Positions 28,320 to 60,141 of a DNA stretch of 64,000 nucleotides are shown piece by piece. Origin of the DNA: Candidatus Peregrinibacteria bacterium. GTDB lineage: Bacteria; Patescibacteriota; Gracilibacteria; UM-FILTER-43-11; JACRIE01. The notes below the pieces were generated by a model. It was not told the origin of the DNA. It worked only from the letters and a program-made list of their open reading frames with translations, and made no database searches. The stretch spans positions 16,364 through 80,363 of the forward strand of contig JACRIE010000040.1 of assembly GCA_016220165.1 (NCBI GenBank), given 5' to 3'. Both the position numbers and the translations under genes were made by a program. Positions within the stretch are counted from its first letter, which is position 1. Every line of letters starts with the position of its first letter.

Positions 28320-28322
28320 AAA

Positions 28323-34278: not shown

Positions 34279-34308
34279 AATCCCGTATAAGATATATTGT
34301 ACGGGATT
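34279..34308. terminator. hairpin between convergent sortase and ftsA-like genes
   Basis: aatcccgta-taagatatattg-tacgggatt: a 9-bp stem with a 12-nt loop in a convergent intergenic region. Confidence 0.45.
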
Positions 34309-34376
34309 CTTTAAAAGACTTTTAAAACAAAAAAATATTAAAAACTACTCCCCTTGTCACGATCTTTACTCATTTT

Positions 34377-35660: not shown

Positions 35661-35662
35661 AA

Positions 35663-36964: not shown

Positions 36965-37043
36965 AACCAAAATTAAGAGAACCAGGAGGATAGTAACAGA
37001 CACTGTTTTTAAAAGCAATTTTTGCGATTGTGATCTGTTCTTC

Positions 37044-37628
37044 TTATGAATTACAAACCATTTTTTTAATAAATTCTAGAAAAAACGCAGGGAACCCTAT
37101 CACATTCCAATAATCTCCCTGAATTCGTCTAACAAAAACGCTCCCGGCTCCTTCAAGAGTCATGGCGCCGGAGCGCCCCTTCCACTCCCCTGTCTTAAGA
37201 TAAGCTTCACAAGTCTTACGACTAATCTTTCGAAAAAAAAGCCTTGTTTTTTCCGCTTCAAAAATGCGCCTCTTTTTACACTTATTAATAAGCGCTACCC
37301 CCGAATAAACATCACAATATTTTCCGCTGAAATTTTGGATTATTTTCTTAGCTTCTTCGCGATCTTTCGGCTTTCCTATCTGCCTATTTTTATCAAAAAA
37401 AACCAAAGTGTCAACTCCGATCACCCAATGATTCGGATAATGACTAGCCACACTTTCTGCTTTTCTTTTTGCGATTTCTCTTACGATAGCGGAAGGAATT
37501 TTTCTTGAACCCCATGTTTCAGAAACTCCTGAAGAAATCGCCTTAAAAGGGATCCCCCATTTTTTCAAAATAGCCTTCCGTTGCGGGCTTTTTGAAGCCA
37601 ATATCCACTGACTACATTCCGTTGCCAT
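37044..37628 (-). CDS. maf: Maf-like nucleoside triphosphate pyrophosphatase
   Basis: ILASKSPQRKAILKKWGIPF.., VIGVDTLV, GKP.DREEA and SGAMTLEGAG. Confidence 0.85.
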   Translation of the reverse strand: MATECSQWILASKSPQRKAILKKWGIPFKAISSGVSETWGSRKIPSAIVREIAKRKAESVASHYPNHWVIGVDTLVFFDKNRQIGKPKDREEAKKIIQNFSGKYCDVYSGVALINKCKKRRIFEAEKTRLFFRKISRKTCEAYLKTGEWKGRSGAMTLEGAGSVFVRRIQGDYWNVIGFPAFFLEFIKKMVCNS

Positions 37629-39312
37629 GGATCATATTATTTAACTCTTTGAGCGCTCGCTCCATTTGGGCGTCAAAATCTTCTTCCGTATTTTTGACTA
37701 TGATATCCGGAGTAATCCCCTTTCCATTAATACTCTTTCCAAGAGAAGTAAGCCATTCGGCAACGGTAAGCTTTAAGCTGGAGTTGTCTTCAAAAAAATT
37801 GATTTCTTGCACTGTCCCTTTACCGAAACTAATCTCCCCTATCAATTTCCCGATTTTCAGATCTTGAATAGCTCCCGCAGTAATTTCTGAAGCGGAAGCG
37901 CTCCCCTTATTCACAAGAACAACCAGGGGATAACGACTCAATTCACCTTTCCCGTTAGTATATTGGATAAAATCAAAACGAGGATATTTAATATTAACTG
38001 CTACAGATTCCGGAGGAAGAAAATAACTCAAAACACCGATGGCCGTGTCTAAAAAACCTCCCGGATTATCGCGAAGATCAAGAACGACCCCTTTTATTTC
38101 AATATTTTTCACAATTTTTTCTACCGCGTCCGCCAATTCTTTCATAGTTTGTTTTCCAAATTGACTCAGTTTGATAGTGGCGATTTCCCCATTAACTTCA
38201 AGCGTAACCGAAACAATGGTTATTAAGTCACGAACTACTTTCAAATTCACTATTTCCTCCTGACGAAGGAGCGAGAGGCTCACTTCGGTGCCACGTTTTC
38301 CTTTAATCCGACTGGCGACCTCGGGCAGAGACATTCCTTCCGTATTCACGCTATCAACAGATCTGATAATGTCGCCTGCTTTTATACCGGCTCGCTCTGC
38401 AGGAGAGCCCCTAATCGGGGCCACAATTACAATTTTATCTCCTTGAATCTCAAGATAGGCTCCAATACCTTCTATCTCTCCGTTAAGATCGTCCGATAAC
38501 GATTTATTTTCATTAGGATTCAAATAAACGGAATAAGTGTCACCAAGTGTTTTTGTCATTTCTTTAAGCGCAGCATTGATCATCTTCGCATCATCGATTT
38601 TAGACGAGTGGAGATAATTTTTATGGATTAAATTCCATATCTGAAGGAATTTAACTAATTGTGGATTATCGATTTTTTCCTGAGATCCTGCCGAAGAAAT
38701 TGTCAAATCAATAGTCGCGAGCTCCATTTGATAAATCATTTGAACGGCTTCTCCTCGAGTAAGATTATTACGTATTCCAAAATATTTTTCATTTTTAGGT
38801 TTAACCAATTTTAATTCCATAGCCCGAACGACCAAGGGTAATTCCGCGCTTTCCCCGGGAAGATCTCGATAAGGCAATACAACAGGAGTTGTACGCGGAA
38901 TAGGGATACTTTTAGAATGAAAAAGGAGCGTTATTGCTTCTATCGTATTTAATTTCCCGTAAGGAGCCAATGACCGCTTTTCAGAATCTAATATGCCTAA
39001 ATCGATTGCTTCTTGGACATAGGGGGCATACCACGCGTTATCGGAAGTGTCCGTGAAAGGAAGGTTTATTTTCAAAGGAAGAGGCCGATTGGGTGCATTA
39101 AGCTTTACAAGATATTTAATAAACTCTGCTTTTAAAATCGGAAGGTTCGGCTGAAACTTCTTCACTTTCAGAAAAATATTTTTCTGATTCAAATAATTAA
39201 CACTGTAATAATAGGGAGAATCATTGGGGATATCGTCAAAAGCGGCGCACCACGGAATCATGAAAACCATGACTAAAAACATAGATGCCATAATTCGGCT
39301 TAAATTTTTCAT
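37612..39312 (-). CDS. S41 carboxy-terminal processing protease with N-terminal SLH-like repeats and a PDZ domain
   Basis: Signal peptide. FDDIPNDSPYYYSVNYL and FTDTSDNAWYAPYVQEAIDLGIL (SLH-like). PDZ motif GSPAERAGIKAGDII. S41 core GVVLDLRDNPGGFLD and LVNKGSASASEI. Confidence 0.85.
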   Translation of the reverse strand: MKNLSRIMASMFLVMVFMIPWCAAFDDIPNDSPYYYSVNYLNQKNIFLKVKKFQPNLPILKAEFIKYLVKLNAPNRPLPLKINLPFTDTSDNAWYAPYVQEAIDLGILDSEKRSLAPYGKLNTIEAITLLFHSKSIPIPRTTPVVLPYRDLPGESAELPLVVRAMELKLVKPKNEKYFGIRNNLTRGEAVQMIYQMELATIDLTISSAGSQEKIDNPQLVKFLQIWNLIHKNYLHSSKIDDAKMINAALKEMTKTLGDTYSVYLNPNENKSLSDDLNGEIEGIGAYLEIQGDKIVIVAPIRGSPAERAGIKAGDIIRSVDSVNTEGMSLPEVASRIKGKRGTEVSLSLLRQEEIVNLKVVRDLITIVSVTLEVNGEIATIKLSQFGKQTMKELADAVEKIVKNIEIKGVVLDLRDNPGGFLDTAIGVLSYFLPPESVAVNIKYPRFDFIQYTNGKGELSRYPLVVLVNKGSASASEITAGAIQDLKIGKLIGEISFGKGTVQEINFFEDNSSLKLTVAEWLTSLGKSINGKGITPDIIVKNTEEDFDAQMERALKELNNMIHGNGM

Positions 39313-39348
39313 AAGACAAAATAATGTTTAAATAAAGAACCTCATTGG

Positions 39349-40605
39349 TTAATTTATTCCAGGAATTGGAAAGCGAGAGCAGAGCGTTTTCACTGCTCCA
39401 TGAAGCTCTCTCAGACGCTTCTCATTTCCTATATTTTTGACCGCCTCAATCATCCAGCCGACAATCCTTTCCATTTCCTTTTCTTTCATGCCTCGCGTGG
39501 TAATAGCAGGAGTTCCCAAACGAACACCCGATGGATCCATGGGGGAACGAGTATCGTCCGCAATCATATTCTTATTCAGCGTGATACCAATCAAATCCAA
39601 TACTTTTTCCACTTCTTGCCCTGATTTTCCGAAAGAACGAACCGTATCCATGAGCATCATATGATTATCCGTTCCGTTAGTGATAAGTTTGCATCCTTTT
39701 TTCATCAAGGTATCTGCCATCGTTTTCGCGTTGCGAATAATTTGAGCAGCGTATTCTTTAAATTCTGGCTTCATTGCTTCGCCTAGGGCAACGGCTTTGG
39801 CCGCCGTATTATTCATATGAGGACCACCTTGAAAACCTGGGAACACGGCTTTGTCAATTTTTTGAGCGAGTTCTTTTTTGCATAAAATCATTCCGCCTCG
39901 TGGTCCGCGTAAGGTCTTATGAGTAGTAGTCGTGACTACGTCAAAACCAAAATCAACCGGATTGATAAGCTGTTTCCCCGCGATAAGGCCTGCGATATGA
40001 GCCATATCCATCATGGCATAAGCCCCCACTTCATCCGCGATCTCACGAAATTTGGCATAATTAAGTTCTCGGGGATAAGCGGAAAAACCTGCCAAAATAA
40101 GTTTTGGTTTTACTTCTTTCGCCGTTCGTCGCAACTCTTCAAAATCGATTTCGCCCGTTTCCACATCTTTCATTTTATAACGGACAAAACGATAAATTTT
40201 CGCCATAAAAGTGACGGGGTGCCCATGAGTCAAATGCCCTCCATGAGACAAGTCCATTCCCATGATCGTATCCCCGGGTTCCAAAAGCGCTGAATAAACA
40301 GCGATATTTGCCGGAGCTCCAGAATGAGGCTGAACATTAACATGCTCCGCATTGAATAACTTTTTAGCGCGTTCAATCGCCAATGATTCAACGACGTCCG
40401 TGTACTCCTGTCCTCCATAATATCGTTTGCCAGGATAGCCTTCTGAATATTTATTAGTGAATACGCTTCCAAGCGCCTCCAAAACAGCCGGAGAAACATA
40501 ATTTTCCGAAGCAATGAGTTCCATTCCATCATTCTGTCGCTTGAATTCCCCTTGAAGAGCGGAATAAACTTCAGAATCCTCTTTTTGGATATAGTTTGAT
40601 GACAT
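39349..40605 (-). CDS. glyA: serine hydroxymethyltransferase
   Basis: ELIASENYVS, NKYSEGYPGKRYYGG, HLTHG and VTTTTHKTLRGPRGGMIL (PLP lysine). Confidence 0.95.
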   Translation of the reverse strand: MSSNYIQKEDSEVYSALQGEFKRQNDGMELIASENYVSPAVLEALGSVFTNKYSEGYPGKRYYGGQEYTDVVESLAIERAKKLFNAEHVNVQPHSGAPANIAVYSALLEPGDTIMGMDLSHGGHLTHGHPVTFMAKIYRFVRYKMKDVETGEIDFEELRRTAKEVKPKLILAGFSAYPRELNYAKFREIADEVGAYAMMDMAHIAGLIAGKQLINPVDFGFDVVTTTTHKTLRGPRGGMILCKKELAQKIDKAVFPGFQGGPHMNNTAAKAVALGEAMKPEFKEYAAQIIRNAKTMADTLMKKGCKLITNGTDNHMMLMDTVRSFGKSGQEVEKVLDLIGITLNKNMIADDTRSPMDPSGVRLGTPAITTRGMKEKEMERIVGWMIEAVKNIGNEKRLRELHGAVKTLCSRFPIPGIN

Positions 40606-40633
40606 TCTGAAATTTTATGAAATAAAATCTATT

Positions 40634-41218
40634 TTAGGGCTTAGATGACACAAAATAAATTCTTTGATCTGTAATAACAACATTCATAGCCACATCATAC
40701 GGATCATGAGGAATAGAATCAACCACTTGCTCAAAAAATGCTAATCCGATTTTCAATGTCTTCGAATATCTTTTTAAAAAATGGTCGTAAAAACCTTTAC
40801 CAAAACCAAGACGGTTGCCTTTCACATCAAAAGCCACTCCGGGAACAATAATTAAATCCAATGGCCCCGAATCCCCTTCTTCAACCCCCATCTCATTCTT
40901 CTGGAACTTAATCGGTTCTGGAATTCCAGCGTATCCTGAATGCAAATAAGGTTCGCCATAAAATCGCGCTGGCTCTATAAAGCCTTTTACCATCTGAGGA
41001 AGAAATAGATTCTTTGTTTTATAATAATTATTCAAAAGGACAATCGTATCCACTTCACTCGAAAAAGAATGGTAAAAAAGAATATTCTTTGCCTCTTGAA
41101 AATAAGACAATTGCTCTAATGATTTTGCGATGAGGCGGCTTTTGGCCTGACGTATTCCTTCGGAAAGATTATTCCTAAATTTAACGGCTTTTTGTCGAAT
41201 TTTTTCTTTCTGATTCAC
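40634..41218 (-). CDS. 5-formyltetrahydrofolate cyclo-ligase
   Basis: LDLIIVPGVAFDVKGNRLGFGKGFYDHFL is the family signature. It lies next to glyA. Confidence 0.85.
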   Translation of the reverse strand: MNQKEKIRQKAVKFRNNLSEGIRQAKSRLIAKSLEQLSYFQEAKNILFYHSFSSEVDTIVLLNNYYKTKNLFLPQMVKGFIEPARFYGEPYLHSGYAGIPEPIKFQKNEMGVEEGDSGPLDLIIVPGVAFDVKGNRLGFGKGFYDHFLKRYSKTLKIGLAFFEQVVDSIPHDPYDVAMNVVITDQRIYFVSSKP

Positions 41219-41239
41219 GTCTTTTGCTCATTTAATAAG

Positions 41240-42718
41240 CTATTTTTTAATTCCAAATACTTCTTCTGCCATTTCAATCATGGTAGGCGCCACGGCAACT
41301 TCTTCTTTTTTAGACTGAATTGGCTTAAGATCAATTTTCTTAAGCTCTAACTTTAATTTAATTTTAGTAGAAAATAAATTTTCAAAAACTTTAATAATAA
41401 CCGTCTGATTCGCCGGATTTGAAATTTTTTCGCGGAACGATTCCGAATTAAAATAGAGTGTTAAAATATTTCTTTCTAATTTGACAGGTTCACTATCCGA
41501 AAAAGACATCCGGATAAAAGGAGTTTCAATTCGTTCCAAAATTCGTTGCCATTGCTTTCGAACATTCTCTAAGCTCAACTCTCCCGTAGTTGCAGCAGAA
41601 TAGGCTGCTGCTGCCTCTCCGACTGTCTTCTCCGTTCTAAGAGATTTAAACTCTTCTTGAGTCCTTGGCATATCCGATATAATCTCGCGACTCTTATCCT
41701 GCTTTTTTGGGATCTGACAAACTTTAATAACGGCAATTTCGAGTGGCAATTGAGAAATCGACGCCTTGCTGATAGCAAGTTTAGCCTCCATAAAAATCTC
41801 AATAGTATTAATAATCCAACTGACATCTTCTTCTTTTTGTATTCCTAATAACATTTTTTCGCGCAAAAAATCGATCCATTCAGTAGCAAATTGTTGTAAA
41901 CTTTGTCCTTCCGCGTTGATTTCATTAATAATCTCAATCGCTCGTTTCGCGTTTTTCTGAATTAAAATACTAAAAAAATCTTCTATCAATTTTTGTCCGG
42001 TCAGTCCTAAATTCTTCAAAACTTCTGTATAAATCACTTCATGATTAATATTCATTTGCTCCAAAAGACCAATCGCGTCTCTAAGGCCTCCTGAAGATTG
42101 TCTGGCAATTAATTTAAGGGATTCTAAATCGGCTTTAATCGATTCCTCGGATGCGATAGTTTCTAAGCGCGAAACAATGTCATCCGTTGAGATTCTCTGA
42201 AAATTAAATTGTTGGCAGCGCGAAAGAATAGTCTCAGGAATTTTATGAAGTTCCGTAGTCGCTAGAATAAAATAAGCATGAGAAGGAGGTTCTTCCAAAG
42301 TTTTAAGGAGAGCGTTAAAAGCCTCCTTAGTCAGCATATGAACCTCATCAATAATATAGATTTTCTTTTTCGCCTGCGTAGGGGCAAATTGAATTTTCTC
42401 ACGCAATTCTCGTATCTCATCAATACCACGATTACTGGCGGCATCAATTTCAATAAGATCGACCAAGCGCCCCTCTCTGATATTTTGACAAATAGAACAT
42501 TCATCGCAAGGTTCCACTCCGCCCTTTAAATTAAGGCAATTAATCGCTTTGGCAATAATTCTGGCAAGAGAAGTTTTTCCAGTGCCTCGTGGACCGCTAA
42601 AAAGATACGCATGATGTACCGTATTATGCTTAAGAGCATTCTGAATACTGCGAATAACATGTTCTTGCCCTACGACACTTCCAAACCCCTGTGGTCTATA
42701 TTTAAGATAGAGAGACAT
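41240..42718 (-). CDS. dnaX: DNA polymerase III subunit gamma/tau
   Basis: LYLKYRPQGFGSVVGQEHV, HAYLFSGPRGTGKTS, zinc module C..CDECSIC, IIDEVHML and ILSRCQ. Confidence 0.92.
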   Translation of the reverse strand: MSLYLKYRPQGFGSVVGQEHVIRSIQNALKHNTVHHAYLFSGPRGTGKTSLARIIAKAINCLNLKGGVEPCDECSICQNIREGRLVDLIEIDAASNRGIDEIRELREKIQFAPTQAKKKIYIIDEVHMLTKEAFNALLKTLEEPPSHAYFILATTELHKIPETILSRCQQFNFQRISTDDIVSRLETIASEESIKADLESLKLIARQSSGGLRDAIGLLEQMNINHEVIYTEVLKNLGLTGQKLIEDFFSILIQKNAKRAIEIINEINAEGQSLQQFATEWIDFLREKMLLGIQKEEDVSWIINTIEIFMEAKLAISKASISQLPLEIAVIKVCQIPKKQDKSREIISDMPRTQEEFKSLRTEKTVGEAAAAYSAATTGELSLENVRKQWQRILERIETPFIRMSFSDSEPVKLERNILTLYFNSESFREKISNPANQTVIIKVFENLFSTKIKLKLELKKIDLKPIQSKKEEVAVAPTMIEMAEEVFGIKK

Positions 42719-42799
42719 AAAAATAGCTTGTAAAAATTAGACTATCGGATTTCTATTATAAAGTTTGTACCTGGCTATCTACAAGCTAAAACCTACAAG

Positions 42800-44176
42800 C
42801 TAATTCCTCTCTTGCTTTTCGCGGAATTCAAGCTTAATACTCGTGCCCATAAAACCAAATTTTTCTCTAAGTCGATTTTCCAGATAACGCCAATAAGAGA
42901 AATGAAAATTTTTCTTTTTATTCACAAAAATGACGAAAGAAGGAGGATTCGTTTCTACCTGAGTCATATAATAAATTTTTGGGAAAGTAGTTTTAGTTCC
43001 GGAAGGAAGATGTTGGGCGGTGATTTCTTCTACGAATTGATTCAACTGATGAGTTTCGATGCGTTTTTTCCGCTCGCATTCGATCTCGTCAAAAATTTCA
43101 AAAATTTTCGTCATCTCTTTTCGCGTAAGAGCTGAAGTAAAAATGACAGGTACCCATGGCAAAAAAACGAATTTTCTTTTTAAATAAAGAAAAAAAGTTG
43201 TTCGCCTTTCTTCTTCTGACATTTTTGGATCAACCTTGATGTCCCATTTATTAGCCAAAATCACGAGTCCTTTGCCTGCTTTAAGAATCAGCCCGGCAAT
43301 TTGCTGATCTTGATGGCTGACCGTTTGGCTGCTATCAATGACCAGCAGAGCGATGTCGCATCGTTCAATGGCCAGAAGCGTTCTCATGGTGCTCCATGAT
43401 TCAACTCCTTTGCCAACTCGCCCTGCCTTTCGTATGCCTGCCGTATCGATAAGAACATAACGACTTTTTTGAACCTGAAGAGTCGTATCAATAGCATCAC
43501 GAGTCGTCCCAGGCACTGCGCTGACGATAAGACGGTTCTTATTGAGCCACGCGTTAATAAGCGATGATTTTCCTACATTGGGCCTCCCTACTACGGCAAT
43601 CTGCGGCATGGCCTCCTCTTCAGTTTGGAGTAATGAATAATCAAAATCCTTTTTGCTTAAAAAATGTAATTCCAAACATGCTTCTGCAATTTTCTTTTCT
43701 AGCTCTTTAAGTCCCTTTTTATGAAGCGCTGAAACAGGAATCGCTTCCCCTAAACCCAATTGAAAATAATTAGCGAACTCTCCTTCTCTGATCGGAGTAT
43801 CGCATTTATTGATTACAAGGATAACGGGCTTCTTTTTTACCTTTTTCCTAAAAAATTGAGCGATTTCTTTATCGTCTTCAAAAAAAACGCTCTTATCTTC
43901 GGTAACAAAAAGAATAATATCTGCCTCCTCAATAGCTACTGCAGCTTGATTAAAAACGTCCGCTTCAATCGTCTCTTCCTTTTTTCCAAAAACGATCCCG
44001 CCCGTATCTATCAAAAAAAAATCAATCAGCGATGTACTTATTTTTCGAATAATACGATCACGAGTCGTGCCTGCTTCATGGGCTGTAAGCGCTGTTCTTG
44101 TCCCGCTTATAGCGTTAAATAAGCTAGACTTCCCAACATTGGGCCGACCAATGATGGCGACACTTGGAATTTTCAT
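42800..44176 (-). CDS. der: ribosome-associated GTPase Der (EngA)
   Basis: Two tandem G domains (IIGRPNVGKSSLFN and VVGRPNVGKSSLIN, DTGG/DTAG, NKCD/NKWD) and a KH-like C-terminus. Confidence 0.92.
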   Translation of the reverse strand: MKIPSVAIIGRPNVGKSSLFNAISGTRTALTAHEAGTTRDRIIRKISTSLIDFFLIDTGGIVFGKKEETIEADVFNQAAVAIEEADIILFVTEDKSVFFEDDKEIAQFFRKKVKKKPVILVINKCDTPIREGEFANYFQLGLGEAIPVSALHKKGLKELEKKIAEACLELHFLSKKDFDYSLLQTEEEAMPQIAVVGRPNVGKSSLINAWLNKNRLIVSAVPGTTRDAIDTTLQVQKSRYVLIDTAGIRKAGRVGKGVESWSTMRTLLAIERCDIALLVIDSSQTVSHQDQQIAGLILKAGKGLVILANKWDIKVDPKMSEEERRTTFFLYLKRKFVFLPWVPVIFTSALTRKEMTKIFEIFDEIECERKKRIETHQLNQFVEEITAQHLPSGTKTTFPKIYYMTQVETNPPSFVIFVNKKKNFHFSYWRYLENRLREKFGFMGTSIKLEFREKQERN

Positions 44177-44856
44177 TGTTTACGTATATCACGACTCCAT
44201 TCAGGACGGGAGTGATGCATTCGATCTAAAATATGCACAAAATCTTCCTGCAGAAAAAGATAATCCGCCTCCTGAAAAGGGCTCAAACTAAGTTGACGGT
44301 CGATTCGTTTGGCTCGTATGACCTCATCAACGATTCTTCGGAAGTCACTGGGAGTCAATTTTTGATTGCGCTCAGAACGAACGGCAGCTTCAATGGAATC
44401 AGTGAGAAAAACGATGGTTTCTTCGCGAGTAGACGGCTTTTTACCAGTATACCGCACTTTAATCTCTTTATTGGGATTAGGGGCGACCGAAGTACCGTGA
44501 TGAGATCGGATAATATTGCAAAGTGGCTTTGGAAAATGAAAACTTTTCGCAAGAAGATATCCTTTTTCGACATGAGAAAGTATGGCTTCTGCGTCGAAAT
44601 CAGTATTACTAATCGTATCCTGATTTTCTGCGAAAGCCTCTGGAACCGCTATTTTCCCGATATCATGATAAAGACCTCCAAAATACACAAGTAGAGGATC
44701 CGTATTCTCCATGACTCGCGCAATAGAGTAGCCCATTTCCGCTACTAGGTGACTATGAAAATAGGTACCCAGCGCTTTTTCCCTTAATTTTTGAAGTAAA
44801 GGGAAGCGAGGGTCGAGATACCTAAGATAAAAGTCGCCCTCCATAAGATTATCCAA
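44173..44856 (-). CDS. HDIG-domain phosphohydrolase (PgpH-type HD domain without the 7TM part)
   Basis: HSHLVAEM, LYHDIGKI and IIRSHHG. Overlaps the der start by 4 nt. Confidence 0.7.
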   Translation of the reverse strand: MDNLMEGDFYLRYLDPRFPLLQKLREKALGTYFHSHLVAEMGYSIARVMENTDPLLVYFGGLYHDIGKIAVPEAFAENQDTISNTDFDAEAILSHVEKGYLLAKSFHFPKPLCNIIRSHHGTSVAPNPNKEIKVRYTGKKPSTREETIVFLTDSIEAAVRSERNQKLTPSDFRRIVDEVIRAKRIDRQLSLSPFQEADYLFLQEDFVHILDRMHHSRPEWSRDIRKQ

Positions 44857-44903
44857 AATTATTATTCAAGATCCGCTACTGGCTCAAGATCTATTAATTT
44901 TAA

Positions 44904-45110
44904 TTAACTGTAATATTGCTCAAGAGCGCGTCGTGCACGATGTCCTGCTGCAATGATCGCCGCCTTTCGAATTTCTCTTTGAGTGATCGTGGGAATATGG
45001 AAACGCTTCTTTTTTCCATCAATAATAATGCGACTTCGTTGAACTAATTTTTTAAAACGATTGATCAAACGTTCGTTTGACTCATTCTTCTTCTTGAACG
45101 CATAAAGCAT
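44904..45110 (-). CDS. rpsU: 30S ribosomal protein S21
   Basis: MLYAFKKKNESNERLINRFKKLVQRSRII..GKKKRFHIP parallels the S21 pattern ..V.KNES.E.AL.RFKR.V.K.G...E.R.R..YEKP. Started at Met13 of ORF 44904..45146. Confidence 0.7.
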   Translation of the reverse strand: MLYAFKKKNESNERLINRFKKLVQRSRIIIDGKKKRFHIPTITQREIRKAAIIAAGHRARRALEQYYS

Positions 45111-45269
45111 AGTGTGTGTACCTCCTTTAAAAAAATTAATGCTCACCTTTTATACCCGAATTTTATGATAAAATCAAGGACTCTATGCCGCAAAATTTAA
45201 GTTGTAAATTACAAACGTTTTATTTTATGGTATATAAAGAAGGATATTTTAATTTTTAAATAAAAATGT

Positions 45270-45557
45270 ATGGGGTTCTTTGATAAAGCGAAAAATTTAT
45301 ACAGCCTTCAAAAACAGGCAAAACAGATTAAAAATGAGCTTAAAACAATCCATGTTGAAGCGGAAACGGATGGGATAAAAATCGTAGTCGATGGCGAACA
45401 GGAATTCCAAAGTGTTGAGATACCTGAAAGTATGGCCGGCGATACGAAAAGAGTCTCTAAAGCCTTCATAGACGCTTCTAATAAAGCTATCAAAAAATCC
45501 CAACAAATCGGAGCTGAAAAAATGAAAGGAGTGATGGGGAACATGTTTGGAGCCTAA
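45270..45557 (+). CDS. ybaB: YbaB/EbfC family nucleoid-associated protein
   Basis: 95 aa. LQKQAKQIKNELKTIHVEAETDGIKIVVDGEQEFQSVEI and a C-terminal helix, which is the typical YbaB layout. Confidence 0.8.
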   Translation: MGFFDKAKNLYSLQKQAKQIKNELKTIHVEAETDGIKIVVDGEQEFQSVEIPESMAGDTKRVSKAFIDASNKAIKKSQQIGAEKMKGVMGNMFGA

Positions 45558-45558
45558 T

Positions 45559-46533
45559 ATGAAAAAAACTGTTTTCCTATTATCATTCTCTATCCTCTTC
45601 CTATTGTCTCTTTATGGTGGGTTTGCCTTCTTTTTCGTATCACCAGGTCAGCGTGTCCTTTTTGAAATTCCAAAAGGCGCTTCTGCCACGGAGATAGCTG
45701 AATCTCTTGAAAAAAATCGACTGATTCAAAGCTCTCTTCTTTTTAAATTTTATTTAAAAAAACAAGGATTAAGCGAAAAAATTAAGGCGGGACGCTATAT
45801 TATTCCTGCGAAAACACGTCTCGCAGATCTTGCCGACCTTTTAGTCAGTGGAAAAAATGCAGAAATGCCAATCACTTTTCCTGAAGGCTTCACGGCGAAT
45901 GAAATGGCTTTGCTCTTGGAACAACAAGGATTAACAACGCACAAGACATTTTTAGCATGTCTTGTCAATTGTGCCTTCTCTTTCAATTTTCTGCCTTCAC
46001 AAAGCGGATTGGAAGGCTATCTATTTCCGGATACTTACTTTATAAATATCGCTGACTACGATAATCAAACCTTCATCAATCGCATGCTTCGGACATTTCA
46101 AAAGCGTCTTTCAGCGGAAGACTGGAAAACAATTAGCGAATCCTCCCATTCACTGGAAGAAATTATTAAAATAGCTTCTATCGTGGAAGCGGAAGAATCT
46201 TCTGAAACGAATCGTCCGATAGTGGCTGGCATTTTATGGAAACGTTTTGATCACGGGATAGGATTAGGAGCTGATGCAACGATCCGCTATGCCATCAAAA
46301 AAAGAACCGGCGCTCTCTCAAAAGATGATCTCGCCACCAATTCCATCTATAACACACGAAAATATAGAGGATTGCCGCCTACTGCCATTGGAAATCCGGG
46401 CATTTCCAGTATACGGGCAGCTCTTTATCCTGTCGCCTCGGATTTTCTTTATTATCTCCACGATTCGGATGGCGTAATTCATTACGCCAAAACACTCGAA
46501 GAACACAATCGTAATAAAGCGCTCTATCTCTAA
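45559..46533 (+). CDS. mltG: endolytic murein transglycosylase MltG (YceG family)
   Basis: N-terminal TM helix, GRYIIPAKTRLADL, FPEGFTANEM, LEGYLFPDTY, ASIVEAEE and YNTRKYRGLPPTAIGNPG. Confidence 0.88.
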   Translation: MKKTVFLLSFSILFLLSLYGGFAFFFVSPGQRVLFEIPKGASATEIAESLEKNRLIQSSLLFKFYLKKQGLSEKIKAGRYIIPAKTRLADLADLLVSGKNAEMPITFPEGFTANEMALLLEQQGLTTHKTFLACLVNCAFSFNFLPSQSGLEGYLFPDTYFINIADYDNQTFINRMLRTFQKRLSAEDWKTISESSHSLEEIIKIASIVEAEESSETNRPIVAGILWKRFDHGIGLGADATIRYAIKKRTGALSKDDLATNSIYNTRKYRGLPPTAIGNPGISSIRAALYPVASDFLYYLHDSDGVIHYAKTLEEHNRNKALYL

Positions 46534-53655: not shown

Positions 53656-54930
53656 TCATTGTTTCGGAAGATAAAAACTGGATGGCGCTTCCTCATCCGG
53701 AGTCGATTCTTCTTCGGACGTATTCTCGTCAGCGTTTTCCGTATCCTCCCCGGATGCGCCGCCGGAACAAACCTTGTCTTCCAGCCATTCCAGCTCACTC
53801 TGGAACGCGCTGATCATAGTCGCTTTGGATTCTTTATTTTTGGTGTCCAGCACACGCCAGAGAGAAACGTTGTCCCGAATCTTGAGGGGCGACCGGCTGA
53901 CGAGATCGGCGCAATGGGCGCGCGTCGTCGAATTGCACACCATGGTTTCACATGTCTTTTTAATGTCGGCAATCATCTGCGGAGCGTATCTAGTGCGGAT
54001 CGCGCCCGGCAGAAGACGCCATGAATCCCACCGCCCGAGCCCTTCCAGCATCTGCGTAACAGGATTGCCTGTCATAGTGACGGGCGCCGGCGGTTCCTGA
54101 TCGAGAGGACGGTCGGAACCTCCGTACATGTCCTCGAAACGGTCGTTCAGATAGCCGATTTCTGAGTTCAGGATGCTGAAAATCTCGGTTCGGCCTTTTT
54201 TCAGTCTGGAATTCAGGGATGCCGCCTTCTGCAATTCCTTCACTTCCTCGCAGGCAAACGTGGCCCGCGCCCGTACGCTCCGTTGGGTCGGAACGTCATC
54301 CGGACCGCGTACTTCCAGTTTCTCGCAATAAGAATTAATAAGATTCATTATCATGGGGATCCCCACCCGCCGATCGGATCGGATAACACGGGTTTTAAAA
54401 GCCCCTTCTTTCAGCCAATTTACCCAATCCAGAATTTCCTCGATCGGATTGAATAAAGCTCTTTCTTTACGTTCCGGGTAGCGGGTGACATTGTATTGAT
54501 CGCTGGGAAGATCCGGCTCGGCCACCTCTTCATTTTCATCGCCGCCGTATAGCGCTTGGAATTGGGAAGACATCGACTCCAGATCCTCTGACGCCTTTTC
54601 CTTAAAATTGTCCAGCGCTCCCTCTGTGTCCCCGCGGGAAGCCCGAGTCGCCTCGTTCAGCGCCGATTTGATGGCTTTATATTCGTCGGGGCAGCCCTTC
54701 ATGTCGTTGAGTTCCAGCTCTTTGCAGTTTTTAAGAATCTGCGGAAGCAAAGCGCGCGCCTGTCCAACCGACGTCAGGGCGCTCACTTTTTCTAAAAAGG
54801 CTTCAAACGGATCGCTCAGCACTCTCAATGAATCCGTTGAGACAGGGGCCGGAGCCGCATTCGACAGCAAGGGTAAAAGCAAAAACGCCCCAACGACTGC
54901 CAATAAACGTGGAAACCATTTTATTTTCAT
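53656..54930 (-). CDS. secreted protein of unknown function built from three related modules
   Basis: Started at MKIKWFPRLLAVVGAFLLLPLLSNAAPAP (signal peptide). Recurrent module ends: SSQFQALYGGDENEE, LNDRFEDMYGGSDRPLD and FQSELEWLEDKVCSGGASGED. Acidic C-terminus. Confidence 0.65.
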   Translation of the reverse strand: MKIKWFPRLLAVVGAFLLLPLLSNAAPAPVSTDSLRVLSDPFEAFLEKVSALTSVGQARALLPQILKNCKELELNDMKGCPDEYKAIKSALNEATRASRGDTEGALDNFKEKASEDLESMSSQFQALYGGDENEEVAEPDLPSDQYNVTRYPERKERALFNPIEEILDWVNWLKEGAFKTRVIRSDRRVGIPMIMNLINSYCEKLEVRGPDDVPTQRSVRARATFACEEVKELQKAASLNSRLKKGRTEIFSILNSEIGYLNDRFEDMYGGSDRPLDQEPPAPVTMTGNPVTQMLEGLGRWDSWRLLPGAIRTRYAPQMIADIKKTCETMVCNSTTRAHCADLVSRSPLKIRDNVSLWRVLDTKNKESKATMISAFQSELEWLEDKVCSGGASGEDTENADENTSEEESTPDEEAPSSFYLPKQ

Positions 54931-55016
54931 AAACTCAAAGTTAAGATTAATTTTTTTAAATTTAACACAAGATTCTACCCCGCGCAAATGGATTGTACGG
55001 TTCACACCGTAAACCC

Positions 55017-55045
55017 TTGAGTTTTAGGCTTATTTTTGCTATAAT
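55017..55045 (+). promoter_or_regulatory. sigma70-type promoter (TTGAGT-17-TGcTATAAT) for the 55140-60141 operon
   Basis: The -35 is at 55017-55022, TGc at 55037-55039 and TATAAT at 55040-55045. Its architecture and spacer resemble 13672-13700 on the other strand. Confidence 0.6.
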
Positions 55046-55051: not shown

Positions 55052-55139
55052 ATAAATCAAGTGACGAGTGACGAGAAAAAACTTGCAACTCGTTACTCGT
55101 CTCTATTAGTTCGTCACTGGTCACTCGTCACTAAGTAAA
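55052..55139 (+). promoter_or_regulatory. structured 5' leader, copy B of the duplicated promoter-leader module
   Basis: agtgacgagtgacgag-aaaaaacttgcaa-ctcgttactcgtctctattagttcgtcactggtcactcgtcactaagtaaa-ATG. Hairpin 55063-55075/55089-55101 (13 bp including one G.U) competes with the perfect 13-bp pairing 55060-55072/55120-55132. Confidence 0.7.
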
Positions 55140-55640
55140 ATGGATATGAACGATCTCGAAATTGCAGAAAATCAGGATCCGGTGCTACTCGCCTGGCAGG
55201 CGCCGGAATTCATCAGCCATCCACGGGGGAAATTATGGTACACAGTCGTGGGCCTTCTGACCGCTGGAATCGTTGTTTATTCGCTCATAACGCAATCGGT
55301 CACGACAGCCATTGTGTTTTTGCTGCTGGCCACGGTTTACGTGCTGACCCGTAATCAGAAGCCAAGGACAATCGATATCAAAATCACGCAGCTGGGAATT
55401 TGGGTTCATCGGACGTTCTATCCCTACAACATGATCCGTTCCTTTTGGGTGGTATACACTCCGCCGTTTGTTCAGACGCTCAACCTTGAAATCGCCAAAA
55501 AATCCCTTCCGCACGTCGCGATTCAGCTCAACGGTCAGGAACCCGTTCCGATCCATGAGATTTTAAGCAAAAAAATCCCTGAAGCCGAAGGGCGCGAGGA
55601 AAGCCTCATGGAAATCGTCACCAGACTTTTCCGACTTTAA
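55140..55640 (+). CDS. small two-TM membrane protein, unknown function
   Basis: 166 aa. W.APEF..H.R...WY is followed by two TM helices (VVGLLTAGIVVYSLI and AIVFLLLATVYVL) and a beta-rich C-terminal domain. Confidence 0.7.
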   Translation: MDMNDLEIAENQDPVLLAWQAPEFISHPRGKLWYTVVGLLTAGIVVYSLITQSVTTAIVFLLLATVYVLTRNQKPRTIDIKITQLGIWVHRTFYPYNMIRSFWVVYTPPFVQTLNLEIAKKSLPHVAIQLNGQEPVPIHEILSKKIPEAEGREESLMEIVTRLFRL

Positions 55641-55654
55641 CAGTTTAATTCATT

Positions 55655-57853
55655 ATGACAGCGTCTGTTCCTGAAACAGCGGTGATAGAAGCGCAAAAGG
55701 CATTTGAAGTCACTCTTTTCCCTGAAAGCGTTTCCGCGGATAACTTAGCCGCCCAATTTGCCGAACGCTACGATCCAAAAAAATACGAAGACGCGATCCG
55801 GACATACGTTGACACGATCACCGCGAAAGATGAAAAAAGCGCCAGTCTTACGGCTGAATCCGTAAGAGCTTATGAAGTATTTTATCAAAAAAATATGGGC
55901 GATCTTCTGAAAGACGCCAAAGCCGAAATGAGTCGCTATCAGGAAGCCCAAAAAGCCATCCGCGACTGGACACGGAATGAGCTTGGCCTCTTAAGAGCGC
56001 AAGTGGAGGCGGCGCGGCGCGTAGCGCCTGCGACCGAAGCGGCCAAAAAGGCCCCGACGGCCAAATATGCGGAAAAAAACAACCTTTTGGGACTTTTCGC
56101 ATCAGCGGACTATAAAACCTATTCCGAAAGCAAAGATAAAACATCCGATCTCTTTGAAAACTACCTAAAAACTTTGAACGATCAGTACCTCGATCTTCCG
56201 CGCCAAAAACGGAATCTCATCGATGAGTTCGGCAAAAAAGAGGGCGGAGATCGCTTTGGGCGTTATAAGGCCATGGCTGACACGTTCAGGGAAGGGATGA
56301 GGGCGCGCGTCGTCGGTAAAATTGACCTTATTTTCTACGAAGGGGCCGCTCCTGAAAAAATCGCGGCGCTTCAGGAAGAAATTCAAAAGGCCTACGCGGA
56401 TTTCGCCAAAAACGATGATGAGATCGGGTTTGAGGATTTAACCGCGCTGGATCGAACCGCCGCGTTTGGAATCGATTTGAACTTATTGGTAAATGGCACA
56501 GGCAGCCGTCAGGCGATTCTCGATCAACTGGAGACGCAGCATTCCATGCGACCCGAGGTCTGGGAAAAAACGGCCGGGGGATTCACGAAGCGCCTCATCG
56601 AAAACGCGATTAACAATGGTCAATCCGGGGCGATTATTACGTTCGTGAAACAATATTGCGTAAAAATCGGACGGCCAAACGATACGCTTGATTTGAAAGG
56701 CGCCTGCAAAGAACTCGTGGCCATGACGGAACGCGCGGCCAAAGCGGGAATCAGGGAAACGCTTGCCTTATGGGAAGGAGAAAACGGACTCGATACGATT
56801 GTCAACGGGCCTCTGAAAAAATCGGCGAATCAAACGGATCAGCGCATCCGCGCGACAGCCATCCTGGAGCGCGCGCAATTATTGACCGAGGAAGTGTGGC
56901 CCAAGAACGAGCCGGATCGGGCCGTAGTCACATTCATTCGCTCTGATTTTGAAGGACGCGGCGAGATCCTGAATAATCCGGGCCGTCTATCGGAGCTCCT
57001 GGAAGGCGTCAAAATCGCAACCGTGGATTACGCCAAAGCGCTGAAGGGATATCTACCCGCCGGCAGTCGGAAATTGGAGGGAAGGGCGGCCCGCGATCCC
57101 GCTCGTCTGCAGGCGCTGATACTGCTGGGGCAGGAGGCGGAAACGATCATTATAAACTTCGGACAGAAGGAAAAATATGAAAAAATTAAAACCGAACACG
57201 AAAAAGACGCGCCCTATCCCGTCGATCTTAAATTCGGCAGTCTTAAAGACCGGCCGGACAATCGTTACATTTCCAATGTCGCGTTGGGCGGATTCAGCGG
57301 TATAGGATTAGGCGGCACGCTCCTTCAGGTGCTGGCGGGGGCAACCCTGGTCGCGAACGTGATGTCCTCCGGATCGGATGCCTGGAAAAACCCGTACGTA
57401 GCGGCTTCGGTGGGCGTTCTTACCGGCTTTCATTACAACAATCGCATGCCGGGCGGGCTTGCCGGCTATCCAATGGCCAGTGAAGCGGAACGCCAGCTTA
57501 AGATGACCCATCTGCACCTAAACACGTTGTGTCTGAATCGCGATTTTAAGAAGGATGCGGTAGTAAAATTTTGCCATACCTCTGCCGAATTCAACGCGAT
57601 CCGGGCGCTCGTTCGTGAGCCATCCAGGATAAAAAAACTAGTTGAAGACGCAGTCAAAAAACCGAATGACCCCAAATATCCAGTGATAAAAGCCGCGGAT
57701 CTGAAAAAGGCGGGAATCGATGAAAAACTGACCGGCGTAACGGACGATCCTCGTCAGTCCCGCCTGCGGTATGAATTTTATAAAACCTTCCTGCTCGGCC
57801 AAAAAAGCGTCAATGTCACGAAACTGCGGGAAGACTGTCGTTTATTCAACTAA
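55655..57853 (+). CDS. 732-aa protein of unknown function with a hydrophobic Gly-rich hairpin near residues 560-610
   Basis: Long helical N-terminal part with no signal peptide. VALGGFSGIGLGGTLLQVLAGATLVANV and YVAASVGVLTGF are predicted membrane segments. No recognised catalytic motif. Confidence 0.75.
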   Translation: MTASVPETAVIEAQKAFEVTLFPESVSADNLAAQFAERYDPKKYEDAIRTYVDTITAKDEKSASLTAESVRAYEVFYQKNMGDLLKDAKAEMSRYQEAQKAIRDWTRNELGLLRAQVEAARRVAPATEAAKKAPTAKYAEKNNLLGLFASADYKTYSESKDKTSDLFENYLKTLNDQYLDLPRQKRNLIDEFGKKEGGDRFGRYKAMADTFREGMRARVVGKIDLIFYEGAAPEKIAALQEEIQKAYADFAKNDDEIGFEDLTALDRTAAFGIDLNLLVNGTGSRQAILDQLETQHSMRPEVWEKTAGGFTKRLIENAINNGQSGAIITFVKQYCVKIGRPNDTLDLKGACKELVAMTERAAKAGIRETLALWEGENGLDTIVNGPLKKSANQTDQRIRATAILERAQLLTEEVWPKNEPDRAVVTFIRSDFEGRGEILNNPGRLSELLEGVKIATVDYAKALKGYLPAGSRKLEGRAARDPARLQALILLGQEAETIIINFGQKEKYEKIKTEHEKDAPYPVDLKFGSLKDRPDNRYISNVALGGFSGIGLGGTLLQVLAGATLVANVMSSGSDAWKNPYVAASVGVLTGFHYNNRMPGGLAGYPMASEAERQLKMTHLHLNTLCLNRDFKKDAVVKFCHTSAEFNAIRALVREPSRIKKLVEDAVKKPNDPKYPVIKAADLKKAGIDEKLTGVTDDPRQSRLRYEFYKTFLLGQKSVNVTKLREDCRLFN

Positions 57854-57864
57854 AAAATCGATCC

Positions 57865-58125
57865 GTGTCCATCGAACAAACCGACATCATTGACCGCCAG
57901 GCGAACCAGGCCCAAATCAACCGGCACCGCGAAGAAGAGGAAACGGACTCCCAGCAATCCGCCTCAGGCGGGCGGCAGCGGAAACAACGACAGTCCGACC
58001 CCTCCCCTGCCTCGGGCATGGCCAAAGCCGCCATCGGCGGCATGAAAAAAAAATTACTGATCGCGGTCGGGGCCACCGGCGGCGTCGCGGGAATAGGCTC
58101 CCTGATTAATTATCTTATCGGCTAG
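57865..58125 (+). CDS. small tail-anchored membrane protein
   Basis: GTG start, a charged N-terminus, and a C-terminal TM helix (LLIAVGATGGVAGIGSLINYLIG). Tightly packed between its neighbours (11-nt and 3-nt gaps). Confidence 0.45.
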   Translation: MSIEQTDIIDRQANQAQINRHREEEETDSQQSASGGRQRKQRQSDPSPASGMAKAAIGGMKKKLLIAVGATGGVAGIGSLINYLIG

Positions 58126-58128
58126 CCC

Positions 58129-60141
58129 ATGGAACGATTTCAAAAAATCATCGTCACAGCGCTCCTCTGCATCTCGCTCGCGTTGACGCTGGCGGGCGTG
58201 AGCGGGCAAGGCAAAGTTTACGCAAAACCGCCCGCCGACCCCGGAACAATTTCTTCTGACTCTGGCGGCGCGCCCGCTAGTCCGGCGGCAACCCCCTCAA
58301 AAAAACCCGAGACCGATCCTGTGACGTTTCAGGAGCTGGTAAAAAAAACCCTGCAGGCTTCCACAACGGTTAACCGGATTTTCAGTCCCATGATTCACTT
58401 CTTGGTCTTCCAGATCGGAAATTTTTTGGGAAACGACTACATTTATGGCGGCGATATGGGCACGATGCTCCACACCATTTGGGTCATCATGCGGAACATC
58501 GTTAACGTCATCTTCGCGCTGATCTTATTAGCAATCGCCCTGATGAACGTGATCCGGCCAGAAGGCGATTCGAATTTCGCCATCAAAAAAACGCTCCCGA
58601 AATTGGTGCTGGTGCTCATCGCGGTCAACTTTTCATGGATGGCGAGCCGCGTGATTCTGGACGCGGCCAACGTGGCCACTAATATCATTTTCCAGATTCC
58701 CGCCGGAGTCCAATCCGTCGGCAGGCCGGATCCAAAAGACTGCACCGTCGACTCGACGAAAAATACGTATGAAGGCGATTGCGCCCCTTATAAGATATAT
58801 TTTCCTTTTGACGGAAAAGAAGCGGATTACAACAAAGAGAATTGCCCCCCTGAAGATGAAATCGATAAAGCTTACGCTTACAAAGTAACAGACAGTAGCG
58901 CATCGGATATGGGTCCGGAAAAACAAGCGTATGATAAGTACTTTGGCAAACGCATTTTCTGCTGGCAGACCATGGATTTTACAAAATACAACCAGAACAC
59001 GGCTTCCCTGTTTTTGTCGTACGGCATGGTCAAAGTCCAGAAAATCGGCCAAATGAGTCAGGCGATCAAAGAAGGCGACACGATCAAAGCGATCGATAAA
59101 ACCTTCATCGGCACCGTCTTCGCTCTTGCCATCCAAATCGTTTATCTGGCAACCTTTCTGGCCCTGTGGCTCGGCCTGCTGGCCCGCACCGCGGCGCTGT
59201 GGCTGCTCGTAGCCTTTTCGCCGATACTGCTTCTGGCGCTCGCCGCCAAAGAGGCCGGCGTCAATCTTCTTCCGGAACAGCTCTCGTTCAATTCATTCAT
59301 CGATTACGCCTTCATTCCCGCCAAAGTCGGAGCCGTGCTTTCGATCGGCTTCATCATGATCGCGGCAGGCCAGACGATGGGCGATTTCTCCTCGAATTCC
59401 ACGGGAAAAATCCTCGAAATAACCAATTTTGCCGGCATGGAAACTCTGCAGCAGTTCATCTGGCTCGTCATGGTCATCGTCGTGGTCTGGATGGGAGTGT
59501 TCGCGATCCTCGGCAAGACCCCCGGAGTTTCTCATCTCACGGGCTGGATCGGCGAGCTGGGCAACCGCGCCGGGAAGTTTATTTCCACCGCGCCCAAATG
59601 GGCCCCCATTATTCCTTTGGGTGTTGACAAACAAACAGGCAAGGCCAAATGGAGGAGCGCTGAAACGATTGACAGGGAGGTGAGCGATAAATTCCACGAC
59701 GCCCTCCGTGAATTCCAGGGAATCAGGGGAACGAGTCAGAACGAAGCGGATAAACTGGCTGAAATGCTGAGAAAGGATGAAAGGGCCCGGCAGGAGCTCG
59801 TCAAAACGACCGATCACAAAGACATCGTCACAAAAATAAACGCGACGCTGAAAATAGACAGGGAGAAACTGAGAGACGTGACCCGGGATAATAAATTGAC
59901 CGGCCTCCTGACGAGCGGAGGAATAGACGCGACCAATGCCGAACGCATAACCGCCGCCGTCCGCCAGGAACTGGATCTGAATCCAGCTGCCGCAGGGTCT
60001 GCGGTATCCGCTCCCGTTCAGCCAGCCGCCGCACCGCCACTACCTCCTGCGCCGCCAGCGCCTCCTGCAACAGTCCCCCCTGCCGCTCCCGCTGGATCTG
60101 GTGCACCTAATGGTGGAACTGGAACCGCCGCCAGACCATAA
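58129..60141 (+). CDS. polytopic membrane protein, possibly TrbL/VirB6-like, with a Cys-containing extracytoplasmic loop and a Pro-rich tail
   Basis: 670 aa. Signal peptide, about 6 TM helices, a loop of about 150 aa with 4 Cys (DCTVD..GDCAPY..ENCPPED..IFCWQ), a cytoplasmic coiled-coil, and a PAAAPPLPPAPPAPPATVPPAAP tail. The VirB6 assignment rests on topology only. Confidence 0.75.
   Translation: MERFQKIIVTALLCISLALTLAGVSGQGKVYAKPPADPGTISSDSGGAPASPAATPSKKPETDPVTFQELVKKTLQASTTVNRIFSPMIHFLVFQIGNFLGNDYIYGGDMGTMLHTIWVIMRNIVNVIFALILLAIALMNVIRPEGDSNFAIKKTLPKLVLVLIAVNFSWMASRVILDAANVATNIIFQIPAGVQSVGRPDPKDCTVDSTKNTYEGDCAPYKIYFPFDGKEADYNKENCPPEDEIDKAYAYKVTDSSASDMGPEKQAYDKYFGKRIFCWQTMDFTKYNQNTASLFLSYGMVKVQKIGQMSQAIKEGDTIKAIDKTFIGTVFALAIQIVYLATFLALWLGLLARTAALWLLVAFSPILLLALAAKEAGVNLLPEQLSFNSFIDYAFIPAKVGAVLSIGFIMIAAGQTMGDFSSNSTGKILEITNFAGMETLQQFIWLVMVIVVVWMGVFAILGKTPGVSHLTGWIGELGNRAGKFISTAPKWAPIIPLGVDKQTGKAKWRSAETIDREVSDKFHDALREFQGIRGTSQNEADKLAEMLRKDERARQELVKTTDHKDIVTKINATLKIDREKLRDVTRDNKLTGLLTSGGIDATNAERITAAVRQELDLNPAAAGSAVSAPVQPAAAPPLPPAPPAPPATVPPAAPAGSGAPNGGTGTAARP

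Follow-up and report, generated by a model that had tools for sequence, protein, structure and literature searches.

What do four tightly packed genes without an assignable family do at the membrane of an ultrasmall bacterium, and do they belong to a machine of the type IV kind? The question is raised by positions 55140-60141 of a 64-kb stretch of DNA, hereafter the window, from a Candidatus Peregrinibacteria bacterium (assembly GCA_016220165.1, contig JACRIE010000040.1), and for this genome the neighbourhood of the operon was read within these 64 kb. An initial annotation, made from the letters alone, had seen here an operon that could contribute to an apparatus resembling a type IV secretion system (T4SS). 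Here, we tentatively favour the reading, which we hold to be possible, that the operon encodes a Peregrinibacteria-specific cytoplasmic-membrane platform working with a hexameric ATPase of the type IV coupling protein (T4CP) type, that is, VirD4/TraD-like. The operon comprises the following features (lengths in nucleotides, nt, or amino acids, aa):

55017-55045, + strand: operon promoter, near-consensus sigma-70 (TTGAGT, 17 nt, TG-n-TATAAT, here TGcTATAAT)
55054-55139, + strand: operon leader, structured, ~85 nt between the -10 element and the ATG
55140-55640, + strand: orf1, 166 aa
55655-57853, + strand: orf2, 732 aa
57865-58125, + strand: orf3, 86 aa, GTG start
58129-60141, + strand: orf4, 670 aa

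All four are genuine genes and not chance open reading frames (ORFs), because their syntenic homologues have E values of 1e-32 to 1e-140; the coordinates and lengths first given for them were all correct. Gaps of 14, 11 and 3 nt separate orf1/orf2, orf2/orf3 and orf3/orf4, and the stop of the convergent recR (60142) directly abuts that of orf4. The promoter scores 10/12 with an extended -10, and a TTGATTTTT...TTTGCTATAATAAnAAGATT promoter is also found upstream of orf1 in most related loci. The 5' flank of the operon is housekeeping (SecA, HrcA, RuvC) plus a VIT1 protein, and its 3' flank holds RecR, inositol monophosphatase, SmpB and tRNA-Ser. We regard the chance that the ORFs are spurious, or the remnant of a mobile element or prophage, as practically nil: the sole hint of it is the lack of an annotated homologue, and it is refuted by homologues that keep this chromosomal context across dozens of species (E down to 1e-140). 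The AlphaFold2 (AF2) models are also confident, no integrase, transposase or phage genes lie nearby, and the GC content of the operon (~0.49-0.53) is that of the adjoining flanks.

The evidence that carries the platform reading comes from gene neighbourhoods in relatives. We surveyed orf4 with one genome per GTDB species, kept 80 loci and read their contexts by hidden Markov model searches of all locus ORFs. Relatives of orf4 occur in at least 123 GTDB species, and all 80 kept loci are from Peregrinibacteria or Peribacteria. Syntenic homologues of orf1, orf2 and orf4 are present in ~30 Peregrinibacteria species, with the order orf1-orf2-(orf3)-orf4 kept. The closest relatives, a group A of ~27 loci, have this order, and directly after orf4 an ATPase of ~850 aa follows in convergent orientation in 20/20 loci with enough flanking DNA. 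An ATPase convergent just downstream of orf4 is also found on two further contigs, and CP064978, a complete genome with a different left flank, keeps the adjacency. A second arrangement, group B, was found at 7 loci and consists of orf1, a 505-aa protein with weak similarity to orf2 in the hairpin region only, an acidic, tail-anchored protein of ~315 aa as the orf3 equivalent, orf4 and then, on the same strand, a homologue of a 1356-aa protein that is encoded elsewhere in the window. Positions of the ATPase in relatives are as follows:

L001, 12370-14904, convergent to orf4: ATPase next to the operon
L003, 11577-14180, convergent to orf4: ATPase next to the operon
11 other loci: ATPase next to the operon

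A transmembrane helix marks the N-terminus of the ATPase, its P-loop lies at aa ~430, and its N-terminal domain of ~400 aa corresponds to Pfam DUF8128, a domain of unknown function (precomputed matches). Further Pfam matches are TrwB_AAD_bind, T4SS-DNA_transf, TraG-D_C and DUF87/HerA; NCBIfam matches are SXT TraD (2.5e-11), a CD1115 VirD4-like family (4e-9) and VirB4_plasma (2e-4); PDB matches are TrwB and DotL. By these matches the ATPase is nearer to T4CP than to VirB4, given 2.5e-11 for SXT TraD against 2e-4 for VirB4_plasma. It is 73-95% identical between species in which orf4 is ~35-45% and orf2 ~25% identical, and thus it is under much stronger constraint than the operon. As the operon of relatives usually adjoins this T4SS-type motor ATPase, the operon proteins are candidates for the membrane parts of the machine. 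Gene neighbourhood, and that only, is what suggests the functional link between operon and ATPase, in bacteria that are uncultivated.

A membrane-anchored ATPase of the FtsK/HerA superfamily beside one polytopic and small bitopic proteins is also the arrangement of the type VIIb core (EssC, EsaA, EssA/EssB), likewise in monoderm cells. When the operon and the ATPase were scanned with Pfam and NCBIfam, no FtsK_SpoIIIE, EssB or EsaA domain and no WXG100 gene was found, and the trace of type VII in the ATPase is a weak P-loop match to EccCb (E = 0.0017), the families that match instead being those of T4CP.

If the platform is real, orf4 is the protein on which its likeness to T4SS would turn. It begins with a signal peptide, followed in order by a Pro/Ser linker, two transmembrane helices and an extracytoplasmic beta-rich loop; beyond the loop it has ~3 further transmembrane helices and a helical C-terminal domain rich in K/R, and it ends in a poly-Pro tail. 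In total there are ~5-6 transmembrane helices, and the Cys-rich loop spans aa 194-317. The polytopic character, the external loop with four Cys and the poly-Pro tail had been read correctly at the outset, and the four loop Cys (C205, C218, C239 and C278) are invariant in 47 homologues. The topology of Agrobacterium tumefaciens VirB6 served as the comparison. Judged by AF2 secondary structure, hydropathy and K/R distribution, orf4 has the VirB6-type topology of at least five transmembrane helices with a large extracytoplasmic loop. The loop follows the second helix, as in VirB6, and the long hydrophilic C-terminal domain is probably cytoplasmic, an assignment for which the basis is the positive-inside rule only. 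VirB6/TrbL, the extended VirB6 proteins (described in PMC12857230), PrgH, Tn916 Orf15, ConG and TcpH are, like orf4, polytopic cytoplasmic-membrane proteins with ~5 helices and the N-terminus outside. A further likeness to VirB6 is that the orf4 of relatives adjoins a T4SS-type ATPase, although that ATPase is T4CP-like and not VirB4. Unlike VirB6, orf4 has the four invariant loop Cys, a cleavable signal peptide and the poly-Pro tail, and no sequence, profile or structure similarity to VirB6 was detected. Hence, the TrbL/VirB6-like topology first given to orf4 stands, and it is the topology only that resembles VirB6.

Several results weigh against the platform reading, and the first of these concern homology. 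Pfam and NCBIfam scans of every orf1-orf4 family member returned nothing above threshold, and a Pfam scan of 47 orf4 family members contained no TrbL match at E <= 1 and no recurring family. No sequence or profile search of the PDB with orf1, orf2, orf4 or the 1356-aa protein was significant. For hhalign the templates were PrgH, PrgI, PrgJ and PcfC of pCF10 and Orf15, Orf16 and Orf17 of Tn916. The family profiles were negative against PrgH, PrgI, Orf15 and Orf17 (orf4 family versus PrgH, E = 0.32; versus Orf15, E = 0.54; tests of low power for orf4, because the templates were single sequences), and the sole signal was a weak alignment around the P-loop of the relatives' ATPase. Gram-positive VirB3, VirB4, VirB6, VirB8 and T4CP gave 0 matches by phmmer against all ORFs of 88 loci. 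For the AF2 model of orf4 (predicted local distance difference test, pLDDT, 75.9), Foldseek found no PDB match at E <= 0.001, and the solved VirB6 (R388 TrwI, 8RT9, 8rt9_F) ranked 44 with E = 7.2 and TM scores of 0.17 and 0.32. Profile searches and Foldseek were the checks that the initial annotation had proposed: orf1-orf4 have no Pfam, NCBIfam or PDB-sequence match above threshold, and the models of orf2 and orf4 are usable yet without a significant match. Confident homology to unrelated housekeeping families, by which the annotation said its reading would fall, was not found. With the conserved gene order, its description of a tight four-gene operon without an assignable family is borne out.

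The second set of results against the platform reading concerns the neighbourhood. The 64-kb window contains no VirB4 or T4CP-type ATPase, so the adjacency seen in relatives is lost in this genome, and the ATPase of relatives, by its sequence, resembles T4CP and not the signature VirB4. Patescibacteria T4CP homologues are mostly unlinked to virB4, and the one in Southlakia epibionticum is dispensable (PMC12102498). RF-1 is the upstream neighbour in 14 group A loci, and PfkB and a transporter of the MFS type lie beyond the ATPase; since the group A neighbourhood is broadly syntenic and may be inherited gene order, the ATPase adjacency is suggestive and not proof. No ATPase was found within 10 kb in group B loci. 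A third set of ~45 Peribacteria loci, group C, has the orf4 homologue solitary or with a ~400-aa protein among ribosomal and translation genes, and no T4CP-type ATPase adjoins the orf4 homologue there. The ~400-aa protein, conserved after the solitary orf4 homologue in ~17 of these ~45 loci (L006 11800-13011, L007 11766-12926 and others), has no Pfam match and is unrelated to orf1-3.

The initial annotation had supposed a T4SS-like system lacking the usual ATPases in this window, and this agrees with the T4CP-type ATPase that lies downstream in 20 related loci and on the two contigs. No VirB4-type neighbour and no T4SS homology was detected. A different explanation is that these genes specify a complex for envelope biogenesis or transport, particular to the lineage and without relation to type IV secretion; orf4 would then be a transporter or membrane enzyme, and the ATPase adjacency inherited synteny of no functional meaning. 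It can draw on the solitary Peribacteria homologues, on RF-1, PfkB and the MFS transporter as equally conserved group A neighbours, on the loss of the adjacency in the window itself and on the undetected T4SS homology. Invariant polar residues of orf4 within membrane helices (R122, N126, N167, D178 and R353), as in transporters and membrane enzymes, add to its case. We nevertheless consider it somewhat unlikely, given that Foldseek against the PDB returned no transporter, flippase or glycosyltransferase fold for the orf4 model, that the ATPase adjacency persists in CP064978 despite the different left flank, that the operon is co-regulated or co-transcribed with the large, non-enzymatic-looking 1356-aa protein, and that orf1 repeatedly matches VirB3 in one register.

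That last point leads to orf1 itself, which carries a conserved W-x-APEF motif at its N-terminus, then a hydrophobic hairpin of two helices (aa 32-72), where the initial annotation had read two transmembrane segments, and a conserved domain of ~90 aa at its C-terminus. The family has 25 members that are 29-55% identical. No Pfam family reaches its gathering score on any of the 25, and four fall below it repeatedly: DUF6232 in 15/25 members (best E = 1.3e-4 in the Pfam scan), VirB3 PF05101 in 9/25 (best 21.0 bits against a gathering score of 23.9 bits, E = 4e-4), DUF5673 on the C-terminal domain in 5/25 and bPH_7 in 3/25. DUF6232, DUF5673 and bPH_7 were considered as families of membrane-anchored bacterial PH-like proteins. 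The VirB3 matches always cover the hairpin, in one register, at profile positions 20-71. As other hairpin families (DUF6232, DUF4131 and EMC6_arch) match that segment too, the VirB3 signal is a lead and not a result. Like VirB3/PrgI, orf1 starts with a cytoplasmic stretch and then forms a membrane hairpin of two helices. In contrast to VirB3, which has ~100 aa, orf1 has 166 aa with an extra C-terminal domain of ~90 aa (DUF5673/bPH-like, sub-threshold), and it neither adjoins nor fuses with VirB4. Given that every homology test was negative or sub-threshold, we do not assign orf4 as VirB6 or orf1 as VirB3.

The largest protein of the operon, orf2, has an all-alpha model (AF2 with a 58-sequence alignment; pLDDT 87.6, predicted TM score 0.77) and no signal peptide. 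Its sole hydrophobic segment is a conserved Gly-rich helical hairpin at aa ~541-597 with the motif GGFNG...NP. On a 19-aa window the hairpin is borderline hydrophobic family-wide (median maximum Kyte-Doolittle hydropathy 1.53; >=1.6 in 22/58 members), so of the helical protein with a Gly-rich membrane hairpin that was first described, the fold and the hairpin stand and its membrane hydrophobicity is borderline. Word-index homologue searches with the single sequence and with a 4-sequence profile returned the query alone, and an exhaustive representative search found a family of 84 members among 1.84 billion representative proteins. Foldseek gave nothing significant against the PDB (best E = 0.04, TM ~0.1) or against BFVD (best E = 0.1, phage tail proteins).

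Does orf2 belong to the machine or is it what the machine exports? Colicins and type III translocators share a design of a soluble all-alpha protein with a single hydrophobic hairpin. One may imagine that orf4, orf1 and orf3 are an export channel and that orf2 and the 1356-aa protein are exported, pore-former- or translocator-like cargo inserting its hairpin into a host membrane. The soluble-looking, all-alpha build of orf2 with its one hairpin would fit, as would its fast evolution (~25% identity between species with ATPases >73% identical), the identity of its best, non-significant structural neighbours (phage tape-measure proteins and colicin Ia) and the retention of the hairpin region only in the group B equivalent. 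Against this, no structural match is significant, orf2 has neither a signal peptide nor any known signal for T4SS export, charged residues occur in the consensus of the hairpin, and orf2 is fixed between orf1 and orf3 in every operon, which is a better fit to a structural subunit. We regard the cargo explanation as very unlikely and keep orf2 as a candidate part of the platform.

The third gene, orf3, encodes a protein, hydrophilic and of low complexity, whose C-terminus forms a Gly-rich membrane anchor (aa 63-82), in agreement with the tail-anchored protein first read here. An ORF at the orf3 position is present in 16/22 related loci with orf2 and orf4 matches; its length varies from 70 to 194 aa, and a K..ALP..G-rich hydrophobic tail is conserved while the rest of the sequence is variable. 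A Gly-rich segment of the GGxxGIGxLI kind occurs in orf3 (aa 72-85), in orf2 (aa 545-556) and in the 1356-aa protein (aa 719-735); this likeness may be coincidental or species-specific, because homologues of the 1356-aa protein do not keep the segment.

The 1356-aa protein is the other main partner, and its gene lies on the opposite strand:

9516-13586, - strand: gene of the 1356-aa protein, conserved part aa ~800-1250
13587-13690, - strand: promoter-leader of the 1356-aa gene, paralogous to that of the operon

The promoter-leaders of the operon and the 1356-aa gene align over ~100 nt, are near-identical and paralogous, and share 38 identical nt (55070-55107 on the + strand versus 13610-13647 on the - strand), with 0 expected by chance; the shared promoter-leader of the initial annotation is thus confirmed. 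The operon leader is made of GTGACGAG repeats, for which two alternative pairings are possible: the first GTGACGAG repeat can pair with either of two downstream segments, which would allow a switch. Each of the two leaders folds stably (z ~ -4; -4.3 for the operon leader). In relatives the -10 element upstream of orf1 is only ~25 nt away from the ATG, so the 85-nt leader is specific to this genome. A search of metagenomes for leader copies gave 0 matches with a 32-mer and, with a 22-mer, one unrelated match inside a coding region.

Homologues of the 1356-aa protein (E 5e-18 to 4e-44) are encoded immediately after orf4, on its strand, in 7 related species. Because of the shared promoter-leader and these group B operons, the operon is firmly linked to the 1356-aa protein. 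The protein has no Pfam or PDB match. Its initial label as an HExxH protein, and with it a metalloprotease reading, was rejected: the motif, HEMRH at aa 552, is absent from the homologues.

Whether the linkage extends to a third locus, an array of pilin genes, was the remaining part of the first reading, in which the operon, the 1356-aa gene and the pilins formed a single regulon. The array is located 26 kb from the operon:

27272-29753, + strand: five VirB2-like pilin genes, with PF18895 T4SS_pilin matches, three above gathering score

All five ORFs match PF18895, in keeping with the VirB2-like pilins described at first, and they form part of a UvrD-RmuC-pilin block at 22990-29753. In CP064978 the operon has this block directly upstream and the ATPase directly downstream, with the pilins 6 kb upstream and pilin genes, operon and ATPase all within ~14 kb. 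CP064978 is the only related genome with pilins near the operon, no other flank examined has them, and this too weighs against a type IV machine built from these parts. An extended promoter motif, TGnTATAATAnnnAGAT, occurs 4 times in the window against 0.09 expected and precedes the operon, the 1356-aa gene, the pilin array and a peptidase of the M23+SLH type; it is close to the lineage's consensus strong promoter. The hairpin GACGAG...CTCGTC, which the initial annotation took to be a family common to operon and pilin array, is found at four window sites (13616, 27169, 46544 and 55063). We rejected it as a regulon marker, since one copy (46544) sits in the gap of an unrelated convergent gene pair, and the analogues in relatives are species-specific; it is a generic intergenic element. 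Hence, the single regulon holds in part: the 1356-aa gene is tied to the operon by the leader and the operons of 7 species, and the pilin link is weak.

Intergenic hairpins of this lineage consist of tandem 6-7-mers and their complement, here of the GTGACGAG type, and versions upstream of orf1 in relatives (L001, L004, L009 and L021) are ACCAGNG, AACGAGAT and AGGAATC. Possibly they represent one class of terminator- or REP-like (repetitive extragenic palindromic) elements that spans the lineage.

In terms resembling function, the nearest known systems are the inner-membrane complex of the monoderm T4SS and the T4SS of Patescibacteria. How does this set compare with the T4SS already described in Patescibacteria? 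That system, derived from MPF-FATA and encoded by SEML1_0006-0019 in S. epibionticum (PMC10633639, PMC12102498), shares its setting with the operon: monoderm Candidate Phyla Radiation organisms and chromosomal genes. Divergent VirB2-like pilin arrays, the lack of a relaxase nearby and a T4CP encoded apart from the other components are also common to both. The genes for VirB3, VirB4, VirB6 and TrsD can be recognised in Saccharimonadia and form a cluster there, whereas none is recognisable at this operon, which instead is a four-gene operon of its own with two large all-alpha proteins without counterpart in described T4SSs. Peregrinibacteria are placed by GTDB in the class Gracilibacteria. In that class VirB6 homologues are reported, by a 2025 survey, to be absent and VirB3 and TrsD not to be near virB4, which has been ascribed to extreme sequence divergence (PMC12102498). 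The platform reading is consistent with this gap. A bolder proposal is that a non-homologous module, orf1-4 and the 1356-aa family, replaced the VirB3/VirB6/VirB8 core and couples the T4CP-like ATPase to VirB2-like pili; we consider this replacement unlikely.

Other features of the window are given for completeness. Directly upstream of the operon and divergent to it lies a gene for a 449-aa secreted protein (53656-55005, - strand) with several Cys and an acidic tail; it has no Pfam match, and the related loci that were examined contain no homologue. The pilin array is directly followed by an S-adenosylmethionine (SAM) riboswitch, RF00162 (69 bits; 29846-29986, + strand), and downstream of the riboswitch lie genes for a methyltransferase, homocysteine S-methyltransferase and MetRS. 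The M23 peptidase with SLH domains occupies 17972-20144 (- strand), its true start probably being an ATG at ~20144 or 20124 and not the listed TTG at 20251; it could be a cell-wall hydrolase of the system with a VirB1-like role. As listed, a sortase (33455-34255), an SLH-domain S41 protease (37612-39312) and the SLH-domain M23 peptidase (17972-20251) are encoded, and the sortase and the two SLH proteins suggest, by their predicted domains, a cell wall with SLH-anchored surface proteins. A run of three tightly spaced genes at 2263-7773 (- strand) encodes proteins of 1055, 348 and 430 aa without a Pfam match, the 1055-aa protein having an N-terminal membrane helix. GC content is 0.37-0.41 at 34000-46000 compared with ~0.47-0.53 in most surrounding sequence, and the genes there are housekeeping (PurA, Maf, SHMT, DnaX and Der).

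If the operon does encode a platform that works with the ATPase, the platform would be the membrane translocon of the lineage's type IV-like secretion or uptake apparatus; the assembly of the parts, the ATPase partnership and transport itself are what we infer from the conserved genes, predicted folds and topology, neighbourhoods and shared leader. In such a translocon orf4 would be a polytopic channel or stator subunit of extended-VirB6-like topology, and orf1 a small hairpin-anchored subunit placed and shaped like VirB3, with one additional small domain. The tail-anchored orf3 would act as a linker of variable length, and orf2 as a large cytoplasmic all-alpha scaffold, the hydrophobic hairpin of which would dip into the membrane while the protein bridges channel and ATPase. 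For the 1356-aa protein we propose the part of an accessory component or of a substrate that would share the operon's regulation and, in some species, its transcript.

The orf2 and 1356-aa families are large all-alpha proteins with folds that are confident or conserved and have no known relatives. Should the ATPase link fail, orf1-4 would still be sharply delimited protein families without a known function, confined to one lineage. A T4SS is essential for epibiotic growth in the one genetically tested patescibacterium, in which its role is unknown (PMC10633639, PMC11665869), and the operon offers concrete, conserved candidates for the missing T4SS membrane core in Peregrinibacteria. If the ATPase link is true, T4SS membrane subunits either diverge far beyond recognition or can be replaced outright, and the operon defines targets for structural, metatranscriptomic and proteomic work. 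If the replacement, in turn, were true, it would mean a new class of ATPase-driven envelope-spanning machine for host contact in ultrasmall bacteria.

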